Shown piece after piece: positions 10,590-38,019 of a DNA stretch of 38,019 nucleotides. Each line of letters starts with the position of its first letter. Position 1 is the stretch's first letter. The notes beneath the pieces are model-generated. The model was not told where the DNA came from and made no database searches. It saw only the letters and a program-made list of their open reading frames with translations. The stretch is from a virus. The DNA is taken from positions 1 to 38,019 of IMG/VR virus record IMGVR_UViG_3300032883_000150, one strand, 5' to 3'. Made by a program: the position numbers and the translations under genes.

Positions 10590-11217
10590 TGAACCTCTCC
10601 CGCGCCGCCACCACCGCGTGCGCCTCGTCCTCCATCTCCCCGATCAGCGCGTCCGCTTGCGTCCCGGTCATGTTCTCAAGGGTCAGGTCGCCCGGCAGGG
10701 GAATGCCGAAACGCTGCGCCATCGCCAGGACGCCGCCCGATATGCGCGTCTCGGGACCGGGGGCGACCGCCTCGGTGAGCACATTGTAAAGCGCATCCGC
10801 CTCCGCATCGGGCAGGGACGAGAGCAGTCCGTCGAGGTCCTCTAGGGTCTTCACCCATGCAGGTTCCTGGATGCATGCCAAGGTGAATATGCGCTGCTTG
10901 ACCGCCATCTTCGCGCCCATCTCGACCAAACGTTGCATGTCCTCGCCCGAGAGTTCGCCCTTCGCCTTGATGGTGTTCCAGAGTGGCTTGTAGTCCTCCG
11001 CCAATCTGGCGTATTCCGGGTCGCGCATCAGTTGCATGCTCAGGTCATCGCGGTCGAATTTGCTTATCTTCTTGATGACGACGTAACCCTGCGCGGTCAT
11101 GACGGCCCACCGCTTGCGATGCTCGGTCAGTATGGCCTTCGCTGGCACTAGGTTCTTCCTCACGTCATCCGGCAGTTCGCTGTCGAACTCTATCAGGTCC
11201 CTCTTGTCCAATTCCAT
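10567..11217 (-). CDS. Tail assembly chaperone (positional call)
   Basis: Acidic 216-aa protein between the tail tube and the tape-measure-like genes. No slippery heptamer seen. Confidence 0.45.
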   Translation of the reverse strand: MELDKRDLIEFDSELPDDVRKNLVPAKAILTEHRKRWAVMTAQGYVVIKKISKFDRDDLSMQLMRDPEYARLAEDYKPLWNTIKAKGELSGEDMQRLVEMGAKMAVKQRIFTLACIQEPAWVKTLEDLDGLLSSLPDAEADALYNVLTEAVAPGPETRISGGVLAMAQRFGIPLPGDLTLENMTGTQADALIGEMEDEAHAVVAARERFNAASKPA

Positions 11218-11224
11218 CCGCCCC

Positions 11225-12175
11225 TTACGCTATCGTCAGTCCGTTGAAGATCATCTTCACGGTTTCCTCGTTCAGGTCTTGCTTCAGTTCCGGCAGATCG
11301 TCGGCCACGAATATGCCGCCAGCCAGCGTAACGGTTTCATCGTCGATCGGGATTGTCAGCGCCGTGACCGCCGAGTTCGCCAACTTCGCGGCGGTATAGG
11401 TTTCGTTCTTTGCTGGCAACGTCATCTCGAAGATGATCTGGCGTTTTCCTTCGGAGATGTCGATCGCGGCTAACGGATATTTTACCGCGTCGTTTCCGGT
11501 CTTGACGCCCGGTTCGCGCTGTAAGTTGTTCCTTACGGTCAGCGACCACTTCGTCGGATGGACGTTCGTTAATCCACCGGCGCCGATGTTGATCTGGAGA
11601 ATGCCTTTCCACGTTAGGATTGCGGTAGTTACTATCGTTGGATCGGCTCCGATGACGATGCTTTGGAACGCGGCATAGGTCTTGGTCGTATTGGCTTCAA
11701 CGTATTGCGCGAGTATCTCGGCATCGAACATTATGGCCTTGCCCGGCGCGTCCGCGGAGATCTTCAACTCGTCGATCATGCAACCGTTGTATAGATTATA
11801 ATAACTGGTCGCTCCTTGCGTCTTTCCTACTTCTGCGGTGAATGAACCGAGCCTTCCGTATGTGGTCGTTCCATCCTGGATCCCACTTGTCGCGCCGAAG
11901 GCATAGAGGGCGAAGAACTTTGTCCAGTCGTAGGCAGATGAAACGGCTTGCGCCTTCCCCGAGTAGGAGAATCCGGCTTCGTATGGACCGCGCGAAACGC
12001 TATTGAAACCACGCGAGCCGGTCACGAATTCTTCCTCGACGTTGAAATTGACCTTCGGCTTGATGCTGACCGGCACTCCGGTATAGGTCAGGGCCGTTGT
12101 CAAACTCGTCCCGTATGTCGATTCCGCGCTGAAATAGAGCCGCCTTACCTCGCCCGTCATGTATGTGTTTGCCAT
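11225..12175 (-). CDS. Major tail tube protein
   Basis: 316 aa, beta-rich. Canonical position between neck proteins and the chaperone/tape-measure genes. Confidence 0.65.
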   Translation of the reverse strand: MANTYMTGEVRRLYFSAESTYGTSLTTALTYTGVPVSIKPKVNFNVEEEFVTGSRGFNSVSRGPYEAGFSYSGKAQAVSSAYDWTKFFALYAFGATSGIQDGTTTYGRLGSFTAEVGKTQGATSYYNLYNGCMIDELKISADAPGKAIMFDAEILAQYVEANTTKTYAAFQSIVIGADPTIVTTAILTWKGILQINIGAGGLTNVHPTKWSLTVRNNLQREPGVKTGNDAVKYPLAAIDISEGKRQIIFEMTLPAKNETYTAAKLANSAVTALTIPIDDETVTLAGGIFVADDLPELKQDLNEETVKMIFNGLTIA

Positions 12176-12185
12176 TTCCCTCTCC

Positions 12186-12599
12186 TCATGCCGCCTCGTA
12201 GTAGATGACCAGAAGTTCCAGCGTCATCCTATAAAGTTCTCGTTCAAGGAACGAGTTGTCCGTCCAGCGCCGCTGCACCATGAAGCACAAGCCGGTCGCC
12301 GGATTGTTGTTGTTCGCGTTCACGATGCGGTCCATCTCCGTCCGCATTTCCATGATGTCGGTGCGGTCGTTCGCCCAACAGTCTATTTGGTAAACAGCGT
12401 CGATGCGGTGGAAGGCGTTGGAGCAGTCCTCGATGGTGCGCGGGGCCATCAGCTCGCGTATCATCACCAGCCGCGTCACGTTCCATGATTCACGGTGCCA
12501 CTCGATGCTGAAGCTGGGCGTGAACGCATTGGTCAGGTTGGCCGCCGTCCATTGACCGGAGAACAGGGTCTTGAGCGAGTCGGCGTAGTCGGTCGTCAA
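12186..12599 (-). CDS. Neck / tail-completion protein (137 aa)
   Basis: TTG 12599 preceded by GGAGGTG + 6 nt, overlapping the upstream TGA (TTGA). The ORF track starts it at GTG 12608. Confidence 0.5.
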   Translation of the reverse strand: MTTDYADSLKTLFSGQWTAANLTNAFTPSFSIEWHRESWNVTRLVMIRELMAPRTIEDCSNAFHRIDAVYQIDCWANDRTDIMEMRTEMDRIVNANNNNPATGLCFMVQRRWTDNSFLERELYRMTLELLVIYYEAA

Positions 12600-13582
12600 T
12601 ACGGCCACCTCCGCGAGGCATCATATGACGGCGGCGGCGAGACGTAGACCTCGATGTCGCTTCCGAGTTCCGCGAGCAGGGAATCGACCTGCTTCTCCAA
12701 TGCGGCGATCCGGTCGGCGTAGATGGACTTGTGGCCCGCACCCTGCATCGCCTCGAAGGTCGGCACCGCGGCCATCTTGGCGCACAGTTTGCGCACCTTG
12801 TAGGGCACGGCCGTTACGCCGTATTGGTAGGTGACCTTGACCGCCTGGATCGGATAGTATGGCGATTGCAACAGTTCCACGAATCCGGTCCTCTTGTTGT
12901 CCTCTGATAAGTAGTAGTCCTCCTCGGCACCCGACGTCATCAGTTCGTAGGTGCTGCTGCCGTCGCGGTAGTAGAGGGTGGTTATCGAGATGACCGGGTA
13001 GTTGCGCAACTTCAGTATCGGGCTTCCGTCCCATTCGTATATCTCGTCCGTGGCCGTCTGCTCGCTCCACGTTTTGTTCGTCCGGTCGTCTATCTCGCTG
13101 ACCGCGTCGGCGATGAACCGCTCGATCTGCGCGTTGCTGACGGCCATCAAGCCCGTTGCCGAGGCGTTGGTGATGTCCCTAACGTCCTGCACGGAACAGT
13201 AGGTGTCCTCGCCGAAGTCGCAGTTCGTGAAGGTCCATGCGGCGGCCGACTGCGCGCCGCTGAATCCCTTGAACCTGCACCTTGTCGCCGTCATTGTGGT
13301 CGTCACGGCGGGCATCGTCCAGGCATTGTGCGGCAGCGTTTCGGCGGACTTGATCTGAGCCTTGTTCGTCGCGGTGCCGACGATGGTGATCGTTATCGCA
13401 GTGGCAGCCGATGCGAATCCCGCCCCGGCGGTGTCGTCGAACTGCAACACGGTCCCCGCCCCCATGACCAGGGTGCCGTTGTGACCACCGCTCGTGTCCG
13501 TGACCAAGAGGTATGTGTAAGTTGTGTCGGCCGAGAGGGTCGTCGTCCCGCCGTTGAGGTTGAGGGTTCCGCCTGCTGTCAT
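12596..13582 (-). CDS. Head-tail connector (gp6-like adaptor) with about 125-aa N-terminal Thr/Gly-rich beta extension
   Basis: The C-terminal 200 aa match the gp6-like connector pattern: VQDVRDIT...IERFIADAVSEIDDRTNKTW...LKLRNYPVISITTLYYRDG...DYYL...VKVTYQYG. Confidence 0.7.
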   Translation of the reverse strand: MTAGGTLNLNGGTTTLSADTTYTYLLVTDTSGGHNGTLVMGAGTVLQFDDTAGAGFASAATAITITIVGTATNKAQIKSAETLPHNAWTMPAVTTTMTATRCRFKGFSGAQSAAAWTFTNCDFGEDTYCSVQDVRDITNASATGLMAVSNAQIERFIADAVSEIDDRTNKTWSEQTATDEIYEWDGSPILKLRNYPVISITTLYYRDGSSTYELMTSGAEEDYYLSEDNKRTGFVELLQSPYYPIQAVKVTYQYGVTAVPYKVRKLCAKMAAVPTFEAMQGAGHKSIYADRIAALEKQVDSLLAELGSDIEVYVSPPPSYDASRRWPY

Positions 13583-13583
13583 C

Positions 13584-14819
13584 TTAGATCACCTTCTCTA
13601 TGTCTTCAAGCAAGGCGTTCGCCGCCATGCCGCCTATCTGCTTCTTGGAGAACTGCCGCACGAACGGCACTCGGAGGCAAGTATATTCAAGATATGGATC
13701 GGTCATCGTGACCGCATAACTGTTGAGATCCACCGGGTCGGTGTGCGCGAAGATGTGCGTTACCGAGATGTTGGACAGGAGCTTTATCGGCCGCTCGCAG
13801 ATGAGGTCGTAGAACGTCTGCCCGGCCCCGGTCTTCACCGTCTTCGGGGTCACGGTGCCGTGGATGATGACCGGCCCCGTTCCCGGCGTCCATGTCCCCG
13901 CGCTGACATCGATGTTGCCTTGGCTCTTTATTTCTGAGATGTTCGTGGCGGTGATCGTTCCGTTCGCGCTCGCGGTTATTCCGCCGGTGCCTGCGTCGAT
14001 CTTCGCACCCGCCACGCTCGATGAGATGATGCCCCTGGTGGATGCGGTGATGGAGGTGGCGGAGAGGGATTTGCCATTCACATTCAGAGTCACGAAATTG
14101 TGGTTGCCACTATCTGTTACGAGGATGATGCCGGCACTCAAATCTTTGTCAAGAATATAACTCCGGGGCCCAGTTATTGACCAGTCGGCACCAAAGGTGA
14201 TCTTCAGGAGGCCAGAAATCGTCGGGAAACTAACGTGCTTGTCTGCATTATAAACTGCGAAGGCGATCTCAGCTGCCCCAGAACAATATAATGTACCAGA
14301 ACCTCCAACCAACGCAATAGCGTTCCAATGGGTATATATCGCCACCGAAGTGGTCAGCGAACCGTCAATGGTCAGCGTTCCTCGGAATGCGAAACAGGTG
14401 TTAATAGTATATGATCCAGTGAACCACCAATTCTGTCCAGCCGCAGTGACGCTGGATACGGTCCTGACCGTCTTTCCAACTCCAATCAATTTAATCCATG
14501 TAGTATCAGAATCAATCACCCCAGCGGTCTGCGTGAAGTTCCCCGAACACGACTGCCACCGAGTGTAAGCTCCCTTCCAACCCCCCCCCGCCATGCTGAA
14601 ATCCGAATACCCGAAATCGACAGCACCTTGCGTGATAGTGCCTGAGTAAGTGGCGGCGATCGTGAAGGTACCGAACGTGGCCGCTATGTCCCACGTACAG
14701 TTCTGGACCGAGGTTGCATCGAAAATAATGTTGTCGCCGGCGACGGGAGCTCCGACTGGGCTCCATGTTCCAGTGCTAGCGTTGCCCGCGCCGGCGTTGT
14801 TCCACGTCTTGTTCGCCAT
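13584..14819 (-). CDS. Beta-helix-like virion protein (head or neck fibre candidate), 411 aa
   Basis: N-terminus NKTWNNAGAGNASTGTWSPVGAPVAGDNIIF, then long Gly/Thr/Ser/Ile-rich repeats. Located between head genes and the connector. Confidence 0.55.
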   Translation of the reverse strand: MANKTWNNAGAGNASTGTWSPVGAPVAGDNIIFDATSVQNCTWDIAATFGTFTIAATYSGTITQGAVDFGYSDFSMAGGGWKGAYTRWQSCSGNFTQTAGVIDSDTTWIKLIGVGKTVRTVSSVTAAGQNWWFTGSYTINTCFAFRGTLTIDGSLTTSVAIYTHWNAIALVGGSGTLYCSGAAEIAFAVYNADKHVSFPTISGLLKITFGADWSITGPRSYILDKDLSAGIILVTDSGNHNFVTLNVNGKSLSATSITASTRGIISSSVAGAKIDAGTGGITASANGTITATNISEIKSQGNIDVSAGTWTPGTGPVIIHGTVTPKTVKTGAGQTFYDLICERPIKLLSNISVTHIFAHTDPVDLNSYAVTMTDPYLEYTCLRVPFVRQFSKKQIGGMAANALLEDIEKVI

Positions 14820-14849
14820 CGGCCCAGACCTTATTGATGCTCCTTCATC

Positions 14850-15233
14850 TCACCGATTGACCAGGTCGTAGATCACGTTCACGCCGCTGATGGCATAGGT
14901 CGCATCGCCGTTCGTTATGCGCGAGACGCGTATCGCCGTCATGGAGTTGACGTTGAGTATCTTAGGCAGGCCGACGACGCTGGCCGTTCCTGAGAGGGCG
15001 CAGGTGACCGTCTCCATCTCGCTCGTGGTCCAATTGTTGTCGCCCACGTTCACTTGGAAGGCGGCCGTGACCGTCCCCGAGGATGAGGCGTTCGCCCCCG
15101 TCGCCTTGACGGATACCGTCATCTCCCTGATGTTCTCCAACGGTTTCTCGGGCGTAGTGCTTGAATAGGTAGTATTGGCTGTGATCGTCAGATTGGAGCT
15201 GAAGAACGCTCCCTTGATGATGTTCGTTGGCAT
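14850..15233 (-). CDS. Small beta-rich virion protein (possible decoration protein)
   Basis: 127 aa, Thr/Ser/Asn-rich, in the head module. Preceded by GGAGGA. Confidence 0.45.
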   Translation of the reverse strand: MPTNIIKGAFFSSNLTITANTTYSSTTPEKPLENIREMTVSVKATGANASSSGTVTAAFQVNVGDNNWTTSEMETVTCALSGTASVVGLPKILNVNSMTAIRVSRITNGDATYAISGVNVIYDLVNR

Positions 15234-15484: not shown

Positions 15485-16183
15485 CTAGACCGTGTACAAC
15501 GGGATGTGCTTCGATACTGTCCCGATCTTGACCAGGATGTAGCCGGCCTGTGTCGCGGAAACGGTCGTGGTCGTGTTGATGACGCTCGTAACCGCCGTGA
15601 AGCGGGCGAACGCAACGACTGGAGCACCGCCTGAAGACACATCGAGTATGTAGTCAAACGCCTTCGCTCCAGCGCCTCCGACATTTATCGCGGCGAAGTT
15701 CGTGATGGTCGCCGCCGCCGCGTTCGAGTTGATGACAAGCCCGTAAAGGTTCGTCGCTGTCAGGGTCGTCGCACATTCGACCGAGCATATCGCCGCCGCT
15801 TCAACGTAGGTCGTCGTTACAGTCCCGGACTGCTCGTATGCCGCCCACAATCCCGCGTGAACTCCGTTCGCTAGATTCGCTTTCACGCGCATCATGAACT
15901 GGCCGCCGAAGATCGATACGTCTGCGGTCTGCGCCTTGTTCACCAGGTATCGGCTATACACTCCAGCCTGAACTGTGAGTGCTGGTAGTACCGAATCGGT
16001 CGACTTGCACTCTGGATAGACGGAGAACAATCCCGCTGTGTTCCCATCGGGATCTGCGGGAATGGTCACGCCCATCGCTTGGCCGAACTCGCCGATGATC
16101 ATCGGCGCTTCGAGCTTGCACCCGTTCATGTCGGAGAAGATAGGACAGGCTGACCTTGCTTTCGTTCTTGGTCCGTTAGCCAT
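15485..16183 (-). CDS. Head-associated protein of unknown role (232 aa)
   Basis: Directly follows the capsid gene (GGGAGGTAAGGGAAC ATG). Ala/Thr/Val-rich. Confidence 0.5.
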   Translation of the reverse strand: MANGPRTKARSACPIFSDMNGCKLEAPMIIGEFGQAMGVTIPADPDGNTAGLFSVYPECKSTDSVLPALTVQAGVYSRYLVNKAQTADVSIFGGQFMMRVKANLANGVHAGLWAAYEQSGTVTTTYVEAAAICSVECATTLTATNLYGLVINSNAAAATITNFAAINVGGAGAKAFDYILDVSSGGAPVVAFARFTAVTSVINTTTTVSATQAGYILVKIGTVSKHIPLYTV

Positions 16184-16198
16184 GTTCCCTTACCTCCC

Positions 16199-17347
16199 TC
16201 ACGCCAGGTCGCGTATCTTGAAGTGCGGAGCGAAGGCCAATGCGGTCAGTTCCCCGAACAGGTCCAGGCTGTGCCTCTCTTCGAAGGCGTCGTGCAGTAT
16301 GGCGTTCGATATCGGGCTCGTCAGGTGCCTTACCGGGCTTGCGACGCGGTATTCCACGTGGTCCAGGCTGATGCCGTAGATACGGCCCGCTCCGTCCGCG
16401 ACCACCTGTGGGCTCTTGAAGATCGGGATGTCGTTGTAGGATGCGACCCTGCTCCCGGTCTCCCTGCCCTTCTCGCTCTGCACGCCGTTCACTCCGAAGG
16501 ACACGCTGATGTAGTCGTTGAACCGCTGGTTGCCGCTCACGAGAGCCGCCCAATCGGCCAATGTGTCGGACTTTGTCAGCATCGCCGCCCTCTCGGGCTT
16601 CATGCCGTAGTCCTCGGCCAACTGCATCTTCTCGTCGATCAGGTTCACGGTCAATGCGCGGTCCACCGCAGATGTTCCGTAGCCGACCTGAGCATCGTAG
16701 GTGTAGGTAGAGTCCCTGTCCAGGGTGTACCAGTCCACATCATTCGCGGTGTAGGATGCGTTCGCGCTGTCAGAGTTGTTGTCAACTTCGTATCCGCCTG
16801 CGATCATGCGGTCGAGCGATTCGGGCAATGCGTCCGCGGTCGTCCCGTTCTGGGTCAGGAGCGCCGTGTCGATGCACCTCGCGAAGAAGTCCATCGCATA
16901 CTGCGCCTGCCAGTTCGATTCTCCCCCGGCCTTGCCGTCCTCGGCCGCCGACTTGACCGTTGCCAATTCGGTGATGTCCCAGGTATAGTTCAGGCGCTTC
17001 AGGGTGATGTTGTAGGTCGCCAGGTCGGGCTTGTCGGTAGCTACCAATGCCCCGGTTTCTGCCACTCCGGCCGCTGCGGTCGCGTGCGCGGTGACGATGC
17101 GCACCCCGGACTTCGCGGTCTGGAAGTCTATCTTCGGCAATATCTTCCAAAGGACGCTGTTCTGGTCCAAATTCATAAAGGTTCTTGGACCGAGCATCGC
17201 CGTGGATACCGCCGTCGCATTGATCACGGGGTCGTCCTTCATGAGCAGGTCGCTCATGCGGCCCACGTCCACTCCTAGGGCGGAAAACTGCTTGCGATAG
17301 GCAGCTTCCACCATATCGTTGTAGGTCTTTACGCGGTTGTCGTTCAT
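16199..17347 (-). CDS. Major capsid protein (HK97-fold, by position and size)
   Basis: 382 aa, immediately after the prohead protease-scaffold. ATG 17347 preceded by GAGGCG (the ORF track starts at TTG 17359). Confidence 0.75.
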   Translation of the reverse strand: MNDNRVKTYNDMVEAAYRKQFSALGVDVGRMSDLLMKDDPVINATAVSTAMLGPRTFMNLDQNSVLWKILPKIDFQTAKSGVRIVTAHATAAAGVAETGALVATDKPDLATYNITLKRLNYTWDITELATVKSAAEDGKAGGESNWQAQYAMDFFARCIDTALLTQNGTTADALPESLDRMIAGGYEVDNNSDSANASYTANDVDWYTLDRDSTYTYDAQVGYGTSAVDRALTVNLIDEKMQLAEDYGMKPERAAMLTKSDTLADWAALVSGNQRFNDYISVSFGVNGVQSEKGRETGSRVASYNDIPIFKSPQVVADGAGRIYGISLDHVEYRVASPVRHLTSPISNAILHDAFEERHSLDLFGELTALAFAPHFKIRDLA

Positions 17348-17355
17348 GGTTCGCC

Positions 17356-18621
17356 TCAATTGTCGGGCACCAACGGTGCCTTCTTCTCGTTCAGGTCGCG
17401 CGCCATTTCCATTACAGACACTCCCGCGCTCTGACCCGCTAGCGGGCCCGAACTCTGAACGACGCCCTTGCGGTCGGGCTGTTGCCCCATCGCTACGGCG
17501 GGTGCCTGGGCTGCAGGCGCTGCCTCAGCCTTCGCGTTCAGTTTCTTCTCAGCCTCGATCGCCTCCATCTTCATTGTCAGCTCCCTGTTCTTGGCCTCGA
17601 CCTCTTCGTACTTCGCCTTGTAGTCGATGGCCGGTGCTGCCGGTTGCGCTGGCGGCGTTGGCGGCTGGGTCGGTGAAGCCGCGGCTTGCACCACGGCTGC
17701 GACTGGCTCCTTCTGTTCCTTCTGCATGTCTGGCTTCTTCTCTTCTGGCATCTTCAGTTCCCCTTTTCCTTCTATCTGGTGCTTGATGGCTCCACAGTAT
17801 GCCTCTGGATTCTCCTTGTCGTGGTTCTTCGAGACGCAGTCCGCGAAGTCGGCGTAATCGCCCATCGGCTTCATGAGCAGATCGGGCGGTGGTATGACGG
17901 ACCACCCTTTCTTCTTCAGGGATGCGGCGATGACGCTGTCGTTCAGAACGATCTCTTTCTCATCGCTGCCCTTGTTTACCCCATCCCCGTCAGGTATAAT
18001 GCTGCCCTCTGAGGCGGCCTCTGACGCTTTGGGGTAATCAACCTTTCGGATTTCGGGCAAACAGCCCTTTATCGCCATGATGAGGCTGCCCGTGTTCATC
18101 GGGTTGAAGACCAGGCCGACGTGATACAGTTCCAGGTCGTCTATCTTGTTGAAGCACATGCCCGACTGGCTGCAATAGCGGACTTTCGAGAGAGCCGAGC
18201 CGCCTATTGAGAAAGCTCGTATCGCGTCCTCGCCCTTGTAATCTGGATTGCGGCCTTTGACTATCCCGTCCATCGCGGCCTTGCCAGCCTTGGACTTGTT
18301 TATCTTGCCCTGTATCCAGAACTTGCGGGGGTTGCTGTCCATCAGGAAGGCCGCATCCGTCACCTTGCCGACGTTGATTCCGTCCTTGTGCCCGTAGGCG
18401 AGAGGCAGATCCACGCCGTCATCTTTCAGGCGGGCGAGGGCCTTCTGGAACGCCTCCATCGTTATCATGTCGCCCGCTTTGTCAATCCCTTCGATGCTCG
18501 CGAAGCCGCTGACAATGCCCGTTAATGGGTCGGCGCTGTCTATCTCGAAGTCGTATTGCCAGTTGCCTTTGTTCACGAATGGACGATTTGGGTCCGCCGA
18601 TTCAAGTTCCCATCCTGTCAT
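17356..18621 (-). CDS. Prohead protease (HK97 gp4/S78-like) fused to a coiled-coil scaffold domain
   Basis: N-half has GFASIEGIDKAGDMITMEAF...LPLAYGHK...AFSIGG. C-half is Lys/Glu/Ala/Pro-rich coiled coil. Strong SD AAAGGAGGA. Confidence 0.8.
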   Translation of the reverse strand: MTGWELESADPNRPFVNKGNWQYDFEIDSADPLTGIVSGFASIEGIDKAGDMITMEAFQKALARLKDDGVDLPLAYGHKDGINVGKVTDAAFLMDSNPRKFWIQGKINKSKAGKAAMDGIVKGRNPDYKGEDAIRAFSIGGSALSKVRYCSQSGMCFNKIDDLELYHVGLVFNPMNTGSLIMAIKGCLPEIRKVDYPKASEAASEGSIIPDGDGVNKGSDEKEIVLNDSVIAASLKKKGWSVIPPPDLLMKPMGDYADFADCVSKNHDKENPEAYCGAIKHQIEGKGELKMPEEKKPDMQKEQKEPVAAVVQAAASPTQPPTPPAQPAAPAIDYKAKYEEVEAKNRELTMKMEAIEAEKKLNAKAEAAPAAQAPAVAMGQQPDRKGVVQSSGPLAGQSAGVSVMEMARDLNEKKAPLVPDN

Positions 18622-24267: not shown

Positions 24268-24426
24268 TCATGTCTCCCCGAGAAGTTTCAAGAGGTTCCG
24301 ACGGTCCTTGTAGGGACACGCTCGGCACATCTCGCCCGGGCCGCGGTCCTTCTTCTCTGCGCCTTCGGTGCCGACGCGCGCCGCAAGTGCCTTTGCGAGT
24401 TTCTCCTCTTGTTCGCGGTCGTTCAT
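24268..24426 (-). CDS. Hypothetical mini-protein (52 aa, one CxxC)
   Basis: My translation is MNDREQEEKLAKALAARVGTEGAEKKDRGPGEMCRACPYKDRRNLLKLLGET. ATGA overlap with the upstream stop. Confidence 0.45.
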   Translation of the reverse strand: MNDREQEEKLAKALAARVGTEGAEKKDRGPGEMCRACPYKDRRNLLKLLGET

Positions 24427-24731
24427 CCCCATCCTACCGTGAATCCCTTGGGCATGTCGATGACCGTGAATCCCGCCTTGAGTAAGTTCGCCTCGAAGTC
24501 ATTTTGCGTCATCGCGACCTTGTTCGGTTCGCCCCTCAGTTCAAGCAGCGGTGCCACGCCCATGTTCCTCCGCATCGATTTCAGGACGCGGACCATGCTG
24601 TGCAGTGGGTTGTCCGGCTGCCTTGCATCGTAGGGCATCGAGACGCGCAGGACGGTGCCTTTCGGGAAGTCGTATCCTCTGCGGGTAATCTTGTCAGCAT
24701 CGAAGTATGCCGTCCAGATCTGTTCGTCCAT
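24423..24731 (-). CDS. Hypothetical protein (102 aa)
   Basis: ATG 24731 preceded by AAAGGGGGA (the ORF track starts at 24752). Confidence 0.6.
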   Translation of the reverse strand: MDEQIWTAYFDADKITRRGYDFPKGTVLRVSMPYDARQPDNPLHSMVRVLKSMRRNMGVAPLLELRGEPNKVAMTQNDFEANLLKAGFTVIDMPKGFTVGWG

Positions 24732-24732
24732 C

Positions 24733-25065
24733 TCAATCCCCCTTTCGTTCATACGTCCTGTCTATTTCCTCGTCGGTCGCCATCAGCCGGAACTGTCCGC
24801 AGTTGCCGCAGGTTATCTCCTGTTGCGCGAGCCACCGGTCGTAGGTCTTGCCGTTCTCGCCGTAGCGCCGGGTGATCCAGACCGCAGCCACCCTCGCGTT
24901 GCGTCCGCAATGAGGACACTTGCCTCCGCTTTCCGTCTCTATCGCGTCCGATTGCACGCGCTGTTGCCTCTTGCCCTCGATGTACTTCTGCGGCATCTCT
25001 GCGTTCCAGGGTTTGTCGGGATGTCGCATGCCCGCCTTCTCGATGACTTCCTTTGCCTTCTGCAA
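24733..25065 (-). CDS. Zinc-ribbon protein (CPHC...CGNC)
   Basis: ORF-track ORF. Start uncertain: TTG 25065 has no well-spaced SD, and ATG 25029 is the alternative. Confidence 0.6.
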   Translation of the reverse strand: MQKAKEVIEKAGMRHPDKPWNAEMPQKYIEGKRQQRVQSDAIETESGGKCPHCGRNARVAAVWITRRYGENGKTYDRWLAQQEITCGNCGQFRLMATDEEIDRTYERKGD

Positions 25066-25122: not shown

Positions 25123-25989
25123 TCATCCATCTCTCACTGCCTCCGTCTCGTCCAACTTCTCGTACATCTCCGCCGGGAGCATGCCGTAGAGCGCGTGCCC
25201 GAAGTACCTCAAGTCTATCTCCTTCATGTGGCCGCATTCTACCCCTAGATGCACCTTGAACTTCATGCCTGCGTCCCTGGCGCGCTCGTAGAAGTAGACG
25301 TCCTCTCCATGCCGTATCTTCTGCCCTTCCTGCCAGGTCAGCCTGAACCAACTCCCCTGCTCGTCCTGCAGCTTCTCGGCCGTCGCCCGGTCCATCATCC
25401 AGCAACCGCCGCCGACCAGATCCGCGTCGACTACCGGATGCCGGTTCTCCTTCCTTGCCAGGTGAACTGCGTCCTTGATGTTCGCGATGGACCAAGTCGT
25501 GAACGCATTCTTCTCCCCCGGCTTGTTCCAGCGGTACAGTCCGGGAACGGGCAGATAGAATGTGTTGTTGCCGACCTTGACTGGGCCGCCGATCCAGCAA
25601 AGTGGACTGACCAACGGCGCATCGATGTGCAACAGGTCTATCAGGTTCGGCGGCAGGACGATGTCGCTGTCCACCCACATCAGGTGCGTCAGTTCCTTGT
25701 TGTCGAGGAATGCGTGCATCAGTTCGTCGCGCGCCTGGTCCAGCGGGAACGCGGTATTGACCTTTATCTCCGCGAAGACCGTTCCTGAAATGCTCGCGAA
25801 CGTGCCGGTGCTGATGCTCTGGCGGCAGCAGACCGCGGCCATGACCTTCTTGCTCCTGACGTTCCTCTCGAACTGGTCCTTGCATCGGGGACAGCAGAAC
25901 ATGCCCGGGACCGCGTTCTCGCCCAGGTCCTTGGCGCAGTTCCGGCAGATCGGTCCCAATGCTTTCTCTTCCTTCTCTCCTTCGCTCAT
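25123..25989 (-). CDS. GT-A-fold glycosyltransferase with N-terminal zinc ribbon
   Basis: CRNC...CPRC, then WVDSDIV (DxD), GGGCWMM and GEDVYFYERARDAGMKFKVH. ATG 25989 overlaps the upstream stop (ATGA). Confidence 0.7.
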   Translation of the reverse strand: MSEGEKEEKALGPICRNCAKDLGENAVPGMFCCPRCKDQFERNVRSKKVMAAVCCRQSISTGTFASISGTVFAEIKVNTAFPLDQARDELMHAFLDNKELTHLMWVDSDIVLPPNLIDLLHIDAPLVSPLCWIGGPVKVGNNTFYLPVPGLYRWNKPGEKNAFTTWSIANIKDAVHLARKENRHPVVDADLVGGGCWMMDRATAEKLQDEQGSWFRLTWQEGQKIRHGEDVYFYERARDAGMKFKVHLGVECGHMKEIDLRYFGHALYGMLPAEMYEKLDETEAVRDG

Positions 25990-26735
25990 TCCCACTTCAA
26001 CTCCTCTCCGTGATAGGCATCGTAGAGTTGGGCCATGTCCACCATCTTGTGATGACCGACCCGCACGTCGAACGCCACATGCACATTGATGCCTAGTGCG
26101 TTGCACCGCCGGAAGAAATAGGTATCCTCGCCACGCCTCAACGCGCCCGACGGGGAACGCCACACCTGCTTGAACCACTCGCCGTCCTCGTCGATCGTCC
26201 TGGCGAACACGCCCCTGCGCACCGCGTAGCAGTTCCCGACCACGTCGCCTATCGGGTAGATGGGGCGTATGCCCGCTTCCTTACATCGCTTGAATACGTC
26301 CTGCATGGCCTCGCGCGGCATGGTGGCGAGCATCTCCCGCTTGTCGTCCATCCACTGATAGACTGAGATTATCGGTTCCTCGTGGAAGCTGTTGCTGTAT
26401 GGTGCCACTATCTGCGCGCCCTCGACGTCGAAGATGCGCATCAGGTCCTTGCACGCGACAACATCGTCGTCCATGAATAATAGCCAGTCGCAATTGGTCT
26501 TGAGGAACTCGATGACCAACTCGTTGCGCGCGACGTCCAAGCCGAGCGAATCGTTCATCCTGATGGCCTCGAACGCCTTGGTGTCGAGCTGATTGAAGAT
26601 GCGGGGCGCCATGCCGCGCTTAGTAGGGATACCGAGAAAGACCTTTACGGTAGTTCTACGGGATTCGTAGGAATTTGCCAATCGATTTGGCTTTGTCCCA
26701 TCGGTCTTCTTTTCATCATTACGATTTCCGCACAT
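25986..26735 (-). CDS. GT-A-fold glycosyltransferase (paralogue of 25123-25989)
   Basis: LLFMDDDVV (DxD), GNCYAV and GEDTYFFRRCNALGINVHV. ATG 26735 shares one base with the upstream TAA. Confidence 0.7.
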   Translation of the reverse strand: MCGNRNDEKKTDGTKPNRLANSYESRRTTVKVFLGIPTKRGMAPRIFNQLDTKAFEAIRMNDSLGLDVARNELVIEFLKTNCDWLLFMDDDVVACKDLMRIFDVEGAQIVAPYSNSFHEEPIISVYQWMDDKREMLATMPREAMQDVFKRCKEAGIRPIYPIGDVVGNCYAVRRGVFARTIDEDGEWFKQVWRSPSGALRRGEDTYFFRRCNALGINVHVAFDVRVGHHKMVDMAQLYDAYHGEELKWE

Positions 26736-27316
26736 TATCCTACCTTCTTCGCGATGAACAGCGTATCCACGCACTTCCATTCGATCGTCCGGTCCGGGCG
26801 GCCCAACAGTTCCTCCCTGATGATCCTCGCCGGCCCGTCCCAGTTCAGGTCGTGCATCGCGAGTATGCCTTCGGGGGCGATCTTCGGCCACCACATATCG
26901 AGGTCGGCCTTGACCGCCTCGTATTCGTGGTTGCCGTCGATGAACAGCAGTCCGACCGGCTCCGCGCCCCATGACTCCGCCGCCCTTGCGCTGGGCATGA
27001 TGAACGTACTGACATTGCCTATCACGCCCGCCCGTTCGAGGTTCGCCCAGAACTCCGGCAATGTATAGACCGGCCCATTCTGATTGTGTTCTGGGCTGCC
27101 GTGGAAGTGGTCGATGGCTACGATATGATTATTTCCATACTGATTCTCCTGCGCGCCCGCCGCCAGGTAGATGGTGCTCTTGCCCTTCCAACTGCCTATC
27201 TCGACCGTCCAGCCTTTATTGTTCTGTGCCGCTAGTTGATAGAGTTCTGCGCCTTCCTGCTCGCTCAGCCAGCCCTCGGTCGAGTTGGCGTGCTGACGCG
27301 CCTCACTTAGTTGCAT
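26735..27316 (-). CDS. Class I SAM-dependent methyltransferase (Methyltransf_24 / CmcI-like pattern)
   Basis: VEIGSWKGKST (motif I), LLFIDGNHEYEAV, ILAMHD. GGAGGT precedes the ATG. Confidence 0.7.
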   Translation of the reverse strand: MQLSEARQHANSTEGWLSEQEGAELYQLAAQNNKGWTVEIGSWKGKSTIYLAAGAQENQYGNNHIVAIDHFHGSPEHNQNGPVYTLPEFWANLERAGVIGNVSTFIMPSARAAESWGAEPVGLLFIDGNHEYEAVKADLDMWWPKIAPEGILAMHDLNWDGPARIIREELLGRPDRTIEWKCVDTLFIAKKVG

Positions 27317-31593: not shown

Positions 31594-31803
31594 TCATTGG
31601 TCCTCCCCGCGTTCTGCCTTGAGATGCCTCAGTTTGGTGTTGACTGCGTCTCGGGACTTTCCTATGTGCTTCGCAACGGCGTCGAGATTCTTATGGCGGT
31701 ATTTCCAGAGAGTCTCGATCTCCTCGTACGACCACTTACGGGCTCGAATGTCGGGGAGCGATTCGAGTTCTGGGACGATGAGTTCCTTCTCTTTGTATTT
31801 CAT
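31594..31803 (-). CDS. Myb/SANT-like HTH mini-protein
   Basis: KWSYEEIETLWKYRHKNLDAVAKHIGKSRDAVNTKLRHL. ATG 31803 overlaps the upstream stop (ATGA). Confidence 0.5.
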   Translation of the reverse strand: MKYKEKELIVPELESLPDIRARKWSYEEIETLWKYRHKNLDAVAKHIGKSRDAVNTKLRHLKAERGEDQ

Positions 31804-32153
31804 GGACGGTCGCCTGCCCATTCCAGCAGTTTGGAGAGCGTATAGAAGATTGGTATCCCTCGTTCTGTTGCGATCTTGATTTCCATCATTGTGCCCGCGC
31901 TCTTCTCGTAATTCCCGATGACGTAGACAGCGTCAGCGACCTCCAGCCACGCAAGGGAGGTTTCGTAGAACGGGTCCTTACCGCTGGTTTTGCATCCCGA
32001 TAGGATGTAATGATAGTCGAGCCACGGACAGAAGGGCGCAAGACCTAACTCGAACAGATGTGTCGCGCAACATATCCCGTCCCTCATGTTCTGGAGGACA
32101 TCCAGAACGTTATCCGCGCTGAACGGCCCTGCGACGTAGACCCTGGCCCTCAT
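31800..32153 (-). CDS. Nucleoside 2-deoxyribosyltransferase-like (DUF4406-type) protein
   Basis: N-terminal RVYVAGPFS, later VADAVYVIGNYEKSAGTMMEIKIA. Confidence 0.5.
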   Translation of the reverse strand: MRARVYVAGPFSADNVLDVLQNMRDGICCATHLFELGLAPFCPWLDYHYILSGCKTSGKDPFYETSLAWLEVADAVYVIGNYEKSAGTMMEIKIATERGIPIFYTLSKLLEWAGDRP

Positions 32154-32932
32154 CGTCCCACGACCTTTGAACAGGACCCGAAGTGCTTATGCCGTTCCTT
32201 GATGTCCAGTTCGCCTTCGTCGTCTATCTCCACGACCACCCAGCCGATGTCGGGTGCGGTGATTATGTCGTGCTTGACGGCGAAGGGTGTCCTCGCCTGC
32301 CATCCGGGGGTGATTATGCCCCACTGATGACCGAGGCCGACGCACACCCAGTAATGGGCGTGAGAACGCACCACGAGGTCTATCTTGCCGTACTCCTCGC
32401 GCGCCTGGTTGACGGCCATCAGGAGCATGTCCCTGGCGATCGGCGTCGATCTGTATTGCCACGACGATTTGCTCACCGGCACATTGTGCGCGACGTGGAA
32501 CCGGGAAAGCCCCTCGTTATCGATTATCAGGTCGTCGCCGTACTCGCCATGAAGCAACTCGGCGACGTACTGTTCGAGCGGCCTGTCCTCCATGCAATGA
32601 TACTCCGAGCCTTGGGTGCAGTAGACGTGTTTGGCCTTGATGCGCGAGAGGAGATCCGCTGCCGCCCTCGCTTGCACCGACAGGTCGTTGGTCCATACGT
32701 TCTTGCCCATGCTCTTGCGTTGTGGACCGTCGCAGATGTCCCCGTTCACGATGAGATTGTCGACCGGACCCACCTCTTTCGTCATCTTCATGAAGTAGGC
32801 CAACATGTCCTTTTGAGTGGAGTTCGGCCTTACCGTGGTGCATTCTCCGGTCCTGCTTTCGATGATGACCTTCTCGGGCATCAGTCCTTCATAACCTCCG
32901 ACGTGAAGGTCGCTCACTATCAGGTTTCTCAT
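32150..32932 (-). CDS. Calcineurin-like metallophosphoesterase
   Basis: LIVSDLHVG, NGDICDG, GSEYH, VRSHAH. ATG 32932 overlaps the upstream stop (ATGA). Confidence 0.7.
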   Translation of the reverse strand: MRNLIVSDLHVGGYEGLMPEKVIIESRTGECTTVRPNSTQKDMLAYFMKMTKEVGPVDNLIVNGDICDGPQRKSMGKNVWTNDLSVQARAAADLLSRIKAKHVYCTQGSEYHCMEDRPLEQYVAELLHGEYGDDLIIDNEGLSRFHVAHNVPVSKSSWQYRSTPIARDMLLMAVNQAREEYGKIDLVVRSHAHYWVCVGLGHQWGIITPGWQARTPFAVKHDIITAPDIGWVVVEIDDEGELDIKERHKHFGSCSKVVGR

Positions 32933-33306
32933 ATCTCTCCTCCAACTTCGCTTAGGCATTCATTCTCGACCCATGCAGCATGTCGTTCGATAATGCTCCG
33001 TTCCATCCAATCCATCCCCAGTTTCTTCAGGTTCGCCGCGTAGACCTTGCTTTCGACCTTGATCTCCCGCTTGGTGAGTCCCAGGGTCTGCGCCCAGTGG
33101 GTCAACTCGTGTATGAGGGCGGGGACTATCTCCCCCTCGGTGCAGTGGGGCGTGAGGGCCAGGGTATTCTTGCGAGAGAAATAGAGCGCGATCCACTCAT
33201 TCGACCCGTCGTGGCATTCCTTCGGCGAGGCGAACCTTATCATCGGATGCGGCCTCCACTTCGGCTTTCTGCGCAGTCGGGCGAACAACTGAAGAAGGGC
33301 ATGCAC
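32929..33306 (-). CDS. HExxH zinc-metallopeptidase-like (SprT-like) protein
   Basis: ALIHELTHWAQ is the only diagnostic motif. GTG start with GGGGGGAC upstream. Confidence 0.45.
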   Translation of the reverse strand: MHALLQLFARLRRKPKWRPHPMIRFASPKECHDGSNEWIALYFSRKNTLALTPHCTEGEIVPALIHELTHWAQTLGLTKREIKVESKVYAANLKKLGMDWMERSIIERHAAWVENECLSEVGGEI

Positions 33307-35299: not shown

Positions 35300-35752
35300 T
35301 CATCGGACCGCCCTCGTCTTCTGCTCGTCGATCCAGGCGACGGCTTCCTCCACGCTCTTGAAGCCGCAATCCTTCATCACGTCGAGACGGGAATCGATCC
35401 AATGCTCTAGCTTGACCTGCTTGCCCTGCTTGCCCTGCGCGAACTCCAGGAGTCTGACGCGCGCCTCCAATTGCTTCGTCTTCGCATCGCGATTCGACTG
35501 GCGCAGAGATTCGAGATATGAAAGTTCTGCTTCATCTTCGAGGAGCCTGGCCTTGTCGCGGAAGATCTGCTCGGTCAGGGCGCGGATCTGAGCATTGATG
35601 ATTCCCGCATCGTCGAGCTGGACCTCCCGGATGATGAGCTCACGAACGTAGGCCGCATCGTTCGGGATCTCCGACAACCGCTTGGCCACGGACTCGGGCA
35701 GGCGGATGCAATAAGGGACGGTCGGCTCACCATACTTGCTCTTGCCCGTCAG
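35300..35752 (-). CDS. Ribbon-helix-helix + coiled-coil protein; start codon unresolved
   Basis: The in-frame sequence ...TVPYCIRLPESVAKRLSEIPNDAAYVRELIIREV is a canonical RHH. The first ATG/GTG/TTG in frame is GTG 35689, downstream of the beta-strand. CTG 35752 or ATT 35758 are the only upstream options. Confidence 0.5.
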   Translation of the reverse strand: MTGKSKYGEPTVPYCIRLPESVAKRLSEIPNDAAYVRELIIREVQLDDAGIINAQIRALTEQIFRDKARLLEDEAELSYLESLRQSNRDAKTKQLEARVRLLEFAQGKQGKQVKLEHWIDSRLDVMKDCGFKSVEEAVAWIDEQKTRAVR

Positions 35753-35773
35753 GGGAATCCGCCCCCTGCAAAG

Positions 35774-35814
35774 TGTAAACAGTTTACAGTACAGTAAACA
35801 GTAAACAGTTTCAC
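35774..35814. repeat. Cluster of GTAAAC/GTTTAC heptamer-like repeats (palindrome + direct repeats)
   Basis: TGTAAAC-A-GTTTACA palindrome 35774-35788. Tandem AGTAAAC at 35793-35799 and 35800-35806. Variant GTTTCAC at 35808-35814. Confidence 0.8.
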
Positions 35815-35981
35815 TTCTACTCTCTCTCTCCCGTGCAGTGGAAATGATGGTCTAAAATCCTTCCTGTGGAACTGCTGGACAGGCCCTTCCACTGGAGATT
35901 TCGAAGGCTTGAGCTTCCGCTCGTAGTGCGATCTCTTTGCCCGTTCCGCTAGGTCATCGAGAGAATCTTCCTGCTCTTGGA

Positions 35982-36908
35982 TCAGGGGCGCGCAGGGTAT
36001 GTCCCCGACGGCTCGTCCAGGTAGAGGTCCGTGCTCAAATACCTTTCGTCTGCCTCTTCTGACTGGCCCAGCTCCGAGGGACATAGCTTCCGCATCGCCC
36101 CCCGCATGTCGTCCGCGTCCAGGCCGATGTACGCCCGGAAGGTGATGCCGCTGTCCTCGTGCCTGAGGATCTTCGCGATCGTCTCTACGTCCACGCCCTT
36201 CCGCCATAGGCGGTTGCCGAGCGTCCTCCTCAGGTCGTGCGGAGTGAAGCGAACGCCCGAGGACTCGGATACCTCCCTCAACCGCCGCCACATCTGCAAC
36301 TTGCGGTAGGGGAAGAGCGTCGCCCCCTCCTGGTCCATCGCCTCTAGATGCTGCTTCAGGGACGGTATCGTCATGGCGTTCAGTGCGAGCGGCCTGATCT
36401 TGCCGCCCCCCCGCCCCTTGCTCAGGATCATGGAGAGGTGGCAGGAGAGCAACTCCCTTCCATTCTGCACCGTCATCCTCTCCATGTCTATCAAGCGGCA
36501 GCCGTTGTCCACCGCGAGCGAATAGAGCAGCTCGTGGTCGTTCGACATCATCTTGGCGTTCGAGCGGACCTTCTGCACTGCCTCTTCGGAGAGGAAGATG
36601 CCGTCCACCTTCGGGTGCTGCTTCGCGGAGATGACCCACCGAAGTGCATCCCTGTTGCCCGACCATCTCAGGAAGGTCCGTATCGTCGAGCAGTAGATCG
36701 CCCTGGTGTTGGTCGACCTCTGCATGACCGACTCCATGCGGTGCATCTCCGATAGGATCAGGCGTGACGGGCTCGGCCCTCCTAGAAGTTCCCCGCCGAG
36801 TTCCAGTGCCTGCACGTACTGCGTCCTCGTCGATGCGCTGAGGTGCGTCCTTTCGCTCAAATATTCCCTCATCTGCCTGGTCCAAGCGTCCCTTCGCTTG
36901 TATGGCAT
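35982..36908 (-). CDS. int: Tyrosine recombinase / integrase (XerC/D-like)
   Basis: N-terminal core-binding-like LSASTRTQYVQAL, catalytic-region motifs GRGGGKIRPLAL, HDLRRT, LRHED...FRAY. Confidence 0.9.
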   Translation of the reverse strand: MPYKRRDAWTRQMREYLSERTHLSASTRTQYVQALELGGELLGGPSPSRLILSEMHRMESVMQRSTNTRAIYCSTIRTFLRWSGNRDALRWVISAKQHPKVDGIFLSEEAVQKVRSNAKMMSNDHELLYSLAVDNGCRLIDMERMTVQNGRELLSCHLSMILSKGRGGGKIRPLALNAMTIPSLKQHLEAMDQEGATLFPYRKLQMWRRLREVSESSGVRFTPHDLRRTLGNRLWRKGVDVETIAKILRHEDSGITFRAYIGLDADDMRGAMRKLCPSELGQSEEADERYLSTDLYLDEPSGTYPARP

Positions 36909-36930
36909 TGGACATCACAATCCCTTCTGG

Positions 36931-36946
36931 ATATTTAATATTGAAT
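36931..36946 (-). promoter_or_regulatory. TATA-like AT-rich box upstream of the integrase
   Basis: ATTCAATATTAAATAT (minus), centred about 30 nt upstream of ATG 36908. Confidence 0.4.
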
Positions 36947-37214
36947 GATGACTGGTCTCGTGGCGAAGGGAAGTTATATTGGGGCACTTCTTCCTCCCTG
37001 TTCTTCGGTCTGGGTTCCATACTCCGGCTAGCTGAGGTCTGGTTAGTCCCGGCGATACACCTTGTTTTTTGTCTCGTTGCCCCCACACCGGCACAAGGTC
37101 CGCTATCGCATCTGGGCCCTTCTATTTCGGGAGACACCTCGAACGGGTATAGCCCATGAACCGTCGCAATCACGCCAGTCATCATTCTCACTTCTTCCAT
37201 GCATCCCATCATTT

Positions 37215-37756: not shown

Positions 37757-38019
37757 TTGCGAGCCTCCTTCTCCATTCCATAGACATACAAGTCGCCGTT
37801 CACATCGCAGAGCAGCGCGTATCCACGCCTCCAGACCTCCATGCGCGCCTCGGCGTGCTTGCGGTGTGTCTCGCCGATGGGTGGTGCCAGAAGCACTCTC
37901 GCGTAAAGCGCAGCATCCCTGGCAGCAACCCCGGCAGCAACCCCGGCAGCATCCCTGGCAGCAACCCCGGCAGCATCCCAGGCAGCATCCCCGGCAGCAT
38001 CCCTGGCAGCAACCCCGGC
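37753..38019 (-). CDS. Tetrapeptide-repeat protein, C-terminal part (repeats + 51-aa tail)
   Basis: The array frame (R/G/W)(D/V)AA continues into LYARVLLAPPIGETHRKHAEARMEVWRRGYALLCDVNGDLYVYGMEKEARK, then TGA 37755-37753. Confidence 0.8.
   Translation of the reverse strand, partial: AGVAARDAAGDAAWDAAGVAARDAAGVAAGVAARDAALYARVLLAPPIGETHRKHAEARMEVWRRGYALLCDVNGDLYVYGMEKEARK
37910..38019. repeat. Same 12-nt tandem array at the other window end
   Basis: One degenerate unit, 8 full units (37921-38016) and ggc. 37950-38011 is identical to 1-62. Confidence 0.95.

Follow-up and report, generated by a model that had tools for sequence, protein, structure and literature searches.

A putative glycan cassette of one methyltransferase and two paralogous GT-A glycosyltransferases in a tailed archaeal virus

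The virus record IMGVR_UViG_3300032883_000150 of IMG/VR was analysed over its positions 1 to 38,019; this whole stretch of 38,019 nucleotides (nt) is referred to here as the window. On its minus strand, from 27316 to 25123, three overlapping genes encode a methyltransferase (MT) and two paralogous proteins, GT1 and GT2, which are predicted to be metal-dependent glycosyltransferases (GTs) of the GT-A fold with intact motifs. The designation of these three genes as a glycan cassette is supported. We propose, at about an even chance of being right, that their products are soluble cytoplasmic enzymes that jointly build or attach a small glycan, and that the acceptors are the structural proteins of the virus's own virion. 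The element itself is, judged by its head genes, a tailed archaeal virus, as the original prediction made from the sequence alone had also held: the major capsid protein (MCP, 16199-17359; PHROG major head protein, E-value (E) 1.4e-22) and the portal protein matched nine records alone among 50,697 phage records, all of them archaeal tailed viruses, namely the Haloarcula HVTV/HCTV group and a Methanofastidiosa virus.

The three genes and the finger of GT2, with lengths in amino acids (aa), are the following.

27316-26735, minus strand: MT, 193 aa, methyltransferase; ATG start with GGAGGT 6 nt upstream
26735-25986, minus strand: GT1, 249 aa, predicted GT-A fold glycosyltransferase, A197-like and related to families GT2/GT62
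25989-25123, minus strand: GT2, 288 aa, predicted GT-A glycosyltransferase paralogous to GT1, with an N-terminal zinc finger
25846-25959, minus strand: Cys4 finger, GT2 residues about 11-48, C15-x2-C18 ... F-C33-C34-x2-C37

The start of MT overlaps the end of the upstream gene by 14 nt, the MT stop and the GT1 ATG share one base (TAATG), and the GT1 stop and the GT2 ATG overlap as ATGA. With these overlapping stops and starts the three genes are translationally coupled, as had been described. In a public gene call of the Joint Genome Institute (JGI) for the same virus (L003), GT1 starts at Met42; the longer form used here is correct, because homologues keep the KVFLGIPTKRG strand upstream of that residue. 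The only alternative GT1 start is a TTG at 26681, and residues 1-27 are of low model confidence and not conserved.

GT1 and GT2 are paralogues on the basis of their BLASTP alignment (24% identity over 238 aa, E 3e-25). Neither matched a Pfam or NCBIfam family significantly; against Pfam, GT1 gave a sub-threshold match to Anp1 (E 0.003, 17.5 bits with a cut-off of 28.8 bits) and GT2 gave nothing. The profile PHROG 34859, annotated 'glycosyltransferase', matched GT2 (E 2.3e-11) and GT1 (E 1.5e-5), and PHROG 34859/1574 matched GT1 at about 2e-5. Because Pfam and NCBIfam gave nothing significant, the GT-A assignment was based on PHROG 34859, on structure prediction followed by Foldseek, and on invariant motifs.

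AlphaFold models of both proteins were built on an alignment of 14 sequences. The GT2 model reached a predicted local distance difference test score (pLDDT) of 87.7 and a predicted template modelling score (pTM) of 0.85, and the GT1 model a pLDDT of 78.7. In Foldseek searches of the PDB, GT2 matched LH3 (1.7e-9), ppGalNAc-T2 (6e-8), Mnn9 (2e-7) and A197 (8.5e-7), and GT1 matched LH3 (5e-9), A197 of Sulfolobus turreted icosahedral virus (STIV; 1.5e-7), COLGALT1, ppGalNAc-T2 and Mnn9; mimivirus R699 and GlfT2 were further GT-A matches. All of the best 50 matches were GT-A proteins (best probability 1.00), with the exception of the envelope protein H3 of vaccinia, which has a glycosyltransferase fold, and the query-normalised template modelling (TM) scores were modest (0.45-0.57). 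Among viral models (BFVD) the fold matches were GT-A proteins of uncultured tailed phages, a fusion with an FkbM methyltransferase, the SFV1 glycosyltransferase and Ardmore gp87.

The DxD motif is FMD89-D-D91VV in GT1 (26463-26471) and WVD107-S-D109IV in GT2 (25663-25671), and the G-E-D motif occupies residues 202-204 of GT1 (26124-26132) and 228-230 of GT2 (25300-25308). Both motifs are invariant in the 14 sequences, together with the nucleotide-binding Asp of LDxAR (D84 in GT2, D67 in GT1), a C-terminal His-x-Lys (H254 in GT2, H228 in GT1) and one more Asp; DxD, E-D and His were still invariant in a wider set of 29 sequences. By analogy with D151 of A197, roles may be assigned to these residues. 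A non-enzymatic protein with a glycosyltransferase fold, of the kind represented by vaccinia H3, was ruled out because every catalytic motif is invariant. The motifs quoted in the original prediction were all present (FMDDDVV and GEDTYF in GT1; WVDSDIV, GEDVYF and CRNC...CCPRC in GT2; EIGSWKGKST and FIDGNHEYEAV in MT), and its paralogous GT-A pair was borne out, with DxD, GED and His intact and with hidden Markov model and structure checks that gave GT-A folds and no match to a curated family. All three proteins lack transmembrane segments; GT1 and GT2 are acidic (isoelectric point (pI) 5.9-6.3, with 5.9 for GT2) and MT has a pI of 5.0.

Orthologues of GT1, with 56-71% identity, were found in five other clusters, and homologues of GT2 form seven clusters with 37-61% identity. 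The immediate family is tiny, consisting of 8 + 6 clusters in a search of 5.8 billion proteins and of just 17 representatives at E <= 1e-30 among 1.84 billion proteins; with about 14 clusters among those 5.8 billion proteins, it merits a profile model of its own. It shades into a large superfamily (5,277 matches) whose members pass Glyco_tranf_2_3, Glycos_transf_2 or Anp1; fusions to a sulfotransferase, a methyltransferase or a second GT occur among them. A third protein search, with the profile of the GT family, added two weak matches and no more. Similarities of GT1 and GT2 to Nup107, L9 or L37a in single-sequence searches of the PDB were noise, and matches to the SARS-CoV-2 spike in the profile search were spurious, low-complexity-like, and were ignored.

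When the family profile was compared with the PDB, the best non-spurious match was STIV A197 (PDB 2C0N, E 0.007). Aligned to the family by hhalign, A197 obtained a probability of 67.7% (E 4.9e-5, 154 columns), and by Foldseek an E of 1.5e-7 to 8.5e-7 with a target-normalised TM of 0.61. Pairwise BLASTP was not significant, though GED(T/V)YFF and F(M/L)D(D/E)DVV align. A marginal kinship of GT1 and GT2 to A197 is thus probable. In A197 the substitution D151E, which affects the Asp of the GED motif, delays replication and a knock-out abolishes it; the STIV capsid protein is glycosylated, and A197 is presumed to be the capsid-protein glycosyltransferase, its donor and acceptor not having been identified (PMC10551542). 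Like GT1 and GT2, A197 is a minimal, soluble GT-A protein encoded by an archaeal virus, with a DxD strand of the FLDxDVV type and an almost identical GEDVYFF, and its gene adjoins structural (turret) genes, a position comparable to that of the GT1 orthologue of contig L006 described below. It differs in being only 197 aa long and in having no zinc finger, paralogue or neighbouring methyltransferase, and STIV belongs to a different realm, Varidnaviria, with a crenarchaeal host; in GT1 and GT2, unlike in A197, an additional beta-hairpin is inserted and a GH.K..D segment is present at the C-terminal side. Although glycosyltransferases have been noted time and again in archaeal viruses, we know of none with a proven donor or acceptor, the solved and essential STIV A197 included.

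MT matched the Pfam family Methyltransf_24 (PF13578) with an E of 1.1e-26 (94.2 bits, cut-off 26.3 bits) over model positions 1-104 of 105, in agreement with its original assignment, and TylF weakly (2.6e-4). Its closest solved relative in a sequence search of the PDB was 6g7d/6g80/6h40 (E 5.1e-16, MT residues 11-158). The two align at VEIGxxxGKST, at the His/Asp-rich DHxHGSxEH and at FIDGxH, with VEIGSWKGKST of MT opposite VEIGTYCGKST of 6g7d in the loop that binds S-adenosylmethionine (SAM); MT carries the His/Asp metal-site motif, and its weaker PDB matches were O-methyltransferases too. As far as these similarities show, MT is a class I SAM-dependent methyltransferase that is O-methyltransferase-like. 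Direct reading of its 193 aa revealed neither the [DNS]PP[YFW] (N6/N4) nor the PCQ/ENV (C5) motifs of DNA methyltransferases, and it had no Pfam DNA-methylase match. PHROG 2675, labelled 'DNA methyltransferase', does match MT, but merely over positions 296-444 of its 599. DNA modification had been thought less likely for a methyltransferase of this type, and the missing motifs agree with that view. Its O-methyltransferase relatives and the adjacent GT suggest that the substrate of MT may be a sugar hydroxyl.

The PDB entry 6G7D/6G80/6H40 was deposited as 'Methyltransferase domain protein', and we take it to be MeT1 of Mycobacterium hassiacum, the 1-O-methyltransferase of methylmannose polysaccharide. 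This protein is bacterial and a distant match to MT (E 5e-16 over about 150 residues). MeT1 is a mycobacterial mannoside 1-O-methyltransferase that methylates a sugar hydroxyl, and it is partnered by a mannosyltransferase, ManT, whose fold is GT-B (GT4) and not GT-A (PMC9883506). It further differs from MT as a cytoplasmic enzyme of a bacterial polysaccharide.

Mycobacteriophage homologues of MT (records H31-H55) bear inconsistent names: GenBank entries call them 'O-methyltransferase', but PHROG 2675 and the RefSeq versions for some of these phages, for example Patt and Taquito, use 'DNA methyltransferase'. In two records that were inspected, ON526978.1 (57251-57826) and KX621007.1 (57783-58358), the homologue lies directly after an HNH endonuclease gene at the right end of the genome.

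The finger that distinguishes GT2 is a clade character. Its consensus, CxxC-x(13-17)-FCSxxC, is present in five of the seven GT2 clusters (P0001, P0002, P0003, P0005 and P0007) and was found neither in GT1 nor in any other subfamily examined; in the GT2 model it has a pLDDT of 86-95. All its Pfam matches fell below the cut-off (DUF2116 'probable treble clef', 8e-4; zf-FLZ, 0.0066; zf-FCS, 0.015; YHS, 0.055; TRASH, 0.17), but they agree with one another in pointing to fingers of the treble-clef kind. Of the N-terminal zinc ribbon first proposed, the four-Cys finger stands, as a feature conserved in the clade; by these sub-threshold matches, however, it looks more like a treble clef of the FCS/TRASH type than a classic ribbon. 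Strong DNA binding by the finger looks unlikely because its net charge, from a count of charged residues, is about +2, and it may instead be a docking or oligomerisation module.

Arrangements of the cassette in related contigs were obtained by tblastn of the window proteins against the fetched loci. Zn110 and p109 denote a 110-aa four-Cys protein and a 109-aa protein, and TerS and TerL the small and large terminase subunits.

Window: TerS-like gene, MT, GT1, GT2, Zn110, p109 ... TerL
L001/L004 (TerL 70% identical): MT, 141-aa protein, MT-A70, 133-aa protein, GT1, GT2, RusA, Zn110, p109, TerL
L014/L015: MT (45-50% identity) abutting or overlapping a single GT (40% to GT1), then TerS-like gene
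L017: GT1, GT2
L018, L020: GT2, without GT1 or MT in the upstream sequence available
L007: GT1 alone
L006 (Logan SRR27370447_1374), 9950-10642: GT1 orthologue (66% identity) within the head module

A GT1-type GT was found downstream of MT in all distinct contigs that have MT (4/4). The two genes abut or overlap in the window, L014 and L015 and are three genes apart in L001/L004, and their adjacency in four contigs suggested a functional coupling of MT and GT. In L006 the GT1 orthologue follows closely on the capsid gene (28%) and is flanked by homologues of the window genes at 15485-16183 (42%) and 14850-15233 (41%). Since this orthologue is 66% identical and the genes around it only 28-42%, comparison of the loci suggests that GT1 is mobile on its own, can be expressed together with head genes and was recently transferred horizontally between distant archaeal tailed viruses. 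Each GT can work without the other, because L006 and L007 have GT1 without GT2, and L018 and L020 have GT2 without GT1. The same distribution speaks against the 'defined methylated disaccharide' of the original prediction, which implies GTs that act in sequence.

In the neighbourhoods of 17 distant viral relatives the commonest annotations were major head protein, head protease, tail fibre and methyltransferase; no Methyltransf_24 homologue was found among these neighbours. In other archaeal tailed viruses, too, GT genes that adjoin capsid or tail genes are on record (PMC11706807). Taken as a whole, the genomic context mildly favours virion proteins as acceptors.

If the cassette acts on the virion, GT1 and GT2 would draw sugars from the nucleotide-sugar pools of the host, whether they act in sequence or independently. 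The DxD and the C-terminal His would hold the divalent metal and the diphosphate, and the Asp of G-E-D would act in catalysis as in STIV A197. MT would cap or modify a sugar hydroxyl by O-methylation, and the finger of GT2 would serve for docking or oligomerisation. Capsid, decoration or tail proteins would be modified in the cytoplasm, before or during assembly, by a route that bypasses the membrane-bound oligosaccharyltransferase of the host. Among the structural proteins, p127 (14850-15233), p411 (13584-14819) and p328 (12596-13582) are rich in Ser and Thr (S+T of 26%, 22% and 20%, respectively). They are encoded in the head-to-tail block at 12596-15233 (minus strand), between the head genes and the tail-tube gene (11225-12175). 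Their sequences show G/T-rich repeats of beta-helix-like character and several N-x-S/T sequons, and none could be assigned to a family. For proteins at head-tail connector positions they are unusually large; they may be decoration proteins or head fibres, and as such candidate glycan acceptors.

A further close parallel is found in mycobacteriophages. In cluster O (Corndog-like), three tandem GT genes come after an O-methyltransferase gene and their products are reported to modify capsid and tail-tube proteins (PMC11600133), and cluster F1 (Che8-like) has two GTs for virion glycosylation (PMC11600133, PMC11256854). The layout is that of the window, with a methyltransferase gene and then tandem GT genes in a tailed virus. 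Ardmore gp87, from a cluster F phage, is a weak fold match to a window GT (E 4e-6). The systems differ in that their hosts are bacterial and their enzymes are not orthologous to GT1 and GT2, for which tblastn against the 50,697 phage records gave no actinophage match; the mycobacteriophages that carry MT homologues (27% identity) are other phages than the glycosylating ones, and these homologues are not beside GTs. Freeman et al. 2023 is reportedly the primary source on mycobacteriophage virion glycosylation.

Several observations weigh against a joint glycan pathway directed at the virion. Since either GT can be found on its own in other contigs, a fixed three-enzyme pathway is not required. 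The cassette of the window, like those of its nearest relatives, lies where early and packaging genes meet, next to HNH, RusA and MT-A70 genes and outside the structural genes. A head gene lay near about 5-7 of the 17 distant-relative loci, where about 3 were expected by chance (7.5 kb interval in a 40 kb genome), so that the enrichment is weak. The mycobacteriophage MT homologues stand beside an HNH gene with no GT nearby, and the coupling of MT and GT is therefore not universal; some sources label these homologues as DNA methyltransferases. The high rank of protein-acceptor GTs in Foldseek is an unreliable guide to the acceptor, and the virus is known from metagenomes alone.

A remodelling of host surface glycans was considered unlikely. 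In that case the targets of the enzymes would be N-glycan precursors linked to dolichol phosphate, or other envelope glycan intermediates, at the inner face of the membrane, and the altered S-layer, archaellum or pilus glycans would block superinfection or the re-adsorption of progeny to lysed cells, as in seroconverting phages. In the Agl pathway of Haloferax, the GT2-family enzymes AglJ, AglG, AglI, AglE and AglD and the SAM-dependent sugar methyltransferase AglP build a methylated oligosaccharide, so that GT2-like GT-A enzymes and a SAM methyltransferase are the enzyme types of archaeal N-glycan assembly. In the same direction point the JGI name of one GT1 orthologue ('glycosyltransferase involved in cell wall biosynthesis'), the names ceramide glucosyltransferase and dolichol-monophosphate mannose synthase among the BFVD fold matches, and the position of the window cassette outside the structural module. 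The Agl enzymes, however, are active at the membrane on dolichol phosphate and require the oligosaccharyltransferase AglB; the window proteins, unlike them, have no membrane segments, no clear amphipathic anchor (maximum KD19 1.34) and no NCBIfam or Pfam match to Agl families. Lysogenic conversion is unsupported, because neither an integrase nor a lysogeny module was found among the scanned open reading frames (ORFs) of the window, and the GT1 orthologue of L006 is embedded among head genes. The original preference for surface glycans had leaned on glycan-binding domains in the tail protein (5038-8565, minus strand, 1175 aa). It loses this footing, as that protein gave sub-threshold Pfam matches alone, to a Disaggregatase repeat and a TGF-beta propeptide, and no sequence match in the PDB.

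It is improbable that the three genes share no pathway and are independent accessory genes collected at an insertion hot spot between the early and packaging modules, with MT methylating a protein, a small molecule or a nucleic acid and each GT having a separate target. The solitary occurrences of GT1 and of GT2, the distance of three genes between MT and the GTs in L001/L004, the mycobacteriophage MT homologues that have no GT neighbour and the apparent mobility of GT1 in L006 all fit such independence. They are countered by the overlap of MT stop and GT start in the window, repeated as abutting or overlapping genes in the more distant L014 and L015, by the GT1-type GT downstream in each MT-bearing contig, by fusions of methyltransferase and GT among distant relatives, and by the O-methyltransferases that are the best solved relatives of MT.

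Glycosylation of DNA, by which one or both GT-A enzymes would add sugar to a modified viral base as protection from host nucleases, with the GT2 finger binding DNA, was regarded as highly improbable. Phage GT-A enzymes that act on 5-hydroxymethylcytosine (5hmC) are likewise virus-encoded, often in tandem and close to methyltransferases, and share the pattern R...DDD...ED(Y/F) (bioRxiv 10.1101/2023.12.21.572611), to which AR..., (D/S)xD and GEDxYF correspond in GT1 and GT2. Genes for DNA-acting proteins are neighbours of the cassette (HNH-AP2 in the window, MT-A70 and RusA in L001/L004), PHROG 2675 carries its DNA methyltransferase label, and a nucleoside 2-deoxyribosyltransferase-like gene is present at 31800-32153. 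The 5hmC clusters, however, have a C5-cytosine methyltransferase with 5mYOX/TET, or a thymidylate-synthase homologue, and none of these was found in scans of 52 window ORFs with Pfam or PHROGs, several ORFs being matchless. MT is without DNA-methyltransferase motifs, the GTs are acidic and the finger has its low net charge. The best structural matches of the DNA GT-A enzymes are TarP and JGT (bioRxiv 10.1101/2023.12.21.572611), and those of GT1 and GT2 are LH3, GalNAc-T, Mnn9 and A197. Glycosylation of a cytoplasmic translation or defence factor of the host, as performed by GT-A enzymes of bacterial toxins, is barely credible: the enzymes are soluble and cytoplasmic and their top fold matches are protein-modifying GT-A enzymes, but no specific similarity to the toxin-type GT44 or Lgt appeared in the best 50 Foldseek matches, we know of no precedent in archaeal viruses, and the head-module placement in L006 points to virion proteins.

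Virion proteins thus remain the preferred acceptors. In its fullest form the proposal states that an archaeal virus itself writes an O-methylated glycan on its capsid or tail proteins by means of a rare A197-related GT-A pair, one member of which is targeted by a treble-clef finger; this form is tentative and, in our opinion, rather doubtful. If true, it would represent a route of protein glycosylation in archaea that is independent of oligosaccharyltransferase and an archaeal counterpart of mycobacteriophage virion glycosylation, and the A197 family would gain a defined acceptor. If virion proteins are the targets, the known range of self-glycosylation with methylated sugars would grow beyond actinobacteriophages to include archaeal tailed viruses, with implications for particle stability and receptor interactions; in the ordinary case, the cassette would be one more auxiliary GT module. 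Virus-encoded glycosylation systems are already known, and the cassette is a new example and not a new principle; its new traits, namely a rare GT-A subfamily that lacks a family model, a clade-specific zinc finger and the pairing with MT in an archaeal tailed virus, are minor. It is also a compact test case, with three soluble proteins, clear catalytic motifs and natural variants of one, two and three genes. Because of these variants and of the S/T-rich structural proteins on the same 38 kb genome, the question of the acceptor can be tested by co-expression.

The genes around the cassette in the window are the following.

29451-28330, minus strand: multi-winged-helix-turn-helix regulator of TrmB/MarR type, 373 aa (TrmB 1.7e-11; also MarR, PadR, Rrf2)
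28333-27818, minus strand: HNH-AP2 endonuclease, 171 aa
27821-27303, minus strand: helix-turn-helix / TerS-like protein, 172 aa, weak small-terminase match
24013-22628, minus strand: TerL

The cassette, which had been placed just upstream of the packaging module, is not an isolated three-gene operon at that site: six overlapping genes of the same orientation form a chain (29451-25123), of which MT, GT1 and GT2 make up the distal half, between the TerS-like gene and TerL. It is unusual for glycan enzymes to share one coupled string with a regulator and a homing or packaging endonuclease. On the 3' side of GT2, a 57-nt gap is followed by the 110-aa four-Cys protein, the 109-aa protein and TerL. 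The former two (24423-25065, minus strand) have no family match, and the 110-aa protein is basic, with CPHC...CGNC. They keep their place between the GTs (or RusA) and TerL in L001/L004, L018 and L020, with 39-69% identity; their link to TerL is tighter than that of the GTs, and they could act as accessory proteins in packaging.

Other genes were observed in L001/L004. A protein of about 780 aa (L001, 353-2713; L004, 1828-4170) matched PALP, a pyridoxal-phosphate enzyme, and faintly an N6_N4 DNA methylase, and a DUF5131 protein (L001, 3908-4606; L004, 5365-6063) gave a faint radical-SAM match. Together with the MT-A70 gene between MT and GT1, they possibly constitute a DNA-modification module that has no counterpart in the window.

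No match was obtained when positions 22-30 kb of the window were compared by megablast with the 50,697 phage records, nor when the GT profile was searched against 185,579 genomes for a host or provirus; the sole TerL match in those genomes, an Acidobacteriaceae prophage with 26% identity, is unrelated. The proteins of the virus show no halophile-type acidity, and the G+C content is about 58%. From the affinities of capsid and portal, the TrmB-type regulator and the sub-threshold Disaggregatase repeat, we infer that the host is an archaeon, not a halophile and possibly a methanogen.

A 12-nt tandem repeat (CATCCCCGGCAG) occupies both ends of the window, at 1-270 (about 22 copies) and 37910-38019 (about 9 copies), and the termini share an identical overlap of 22 nt. 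On the minus strand the array encodes (M/L)LPG repeats (ORF 37800-38012). Because the identical 12-nt array is present at both ends, the contig probably represents a whole genome, either circular or circularly permuted, broken by the assembler inside one array of about 380 nt.

Among the remaining genes, the window protein p232 (15485-16183) gave no PDB match, and a 487-aa early protein (35749-37212, minus strand) matched no Pfam or PHROG family. A 117-aa protein (31800-32153, minus strand) matched DUF7768/DUF4406 (1.2e-9) and, weakly, nucleoside 2-deoxyribosyltransferase; its gene adjoins that of a Metallophos-like phosphoesterase (32150-32959), and the pair hints at manipulation of the nucleotide pool.

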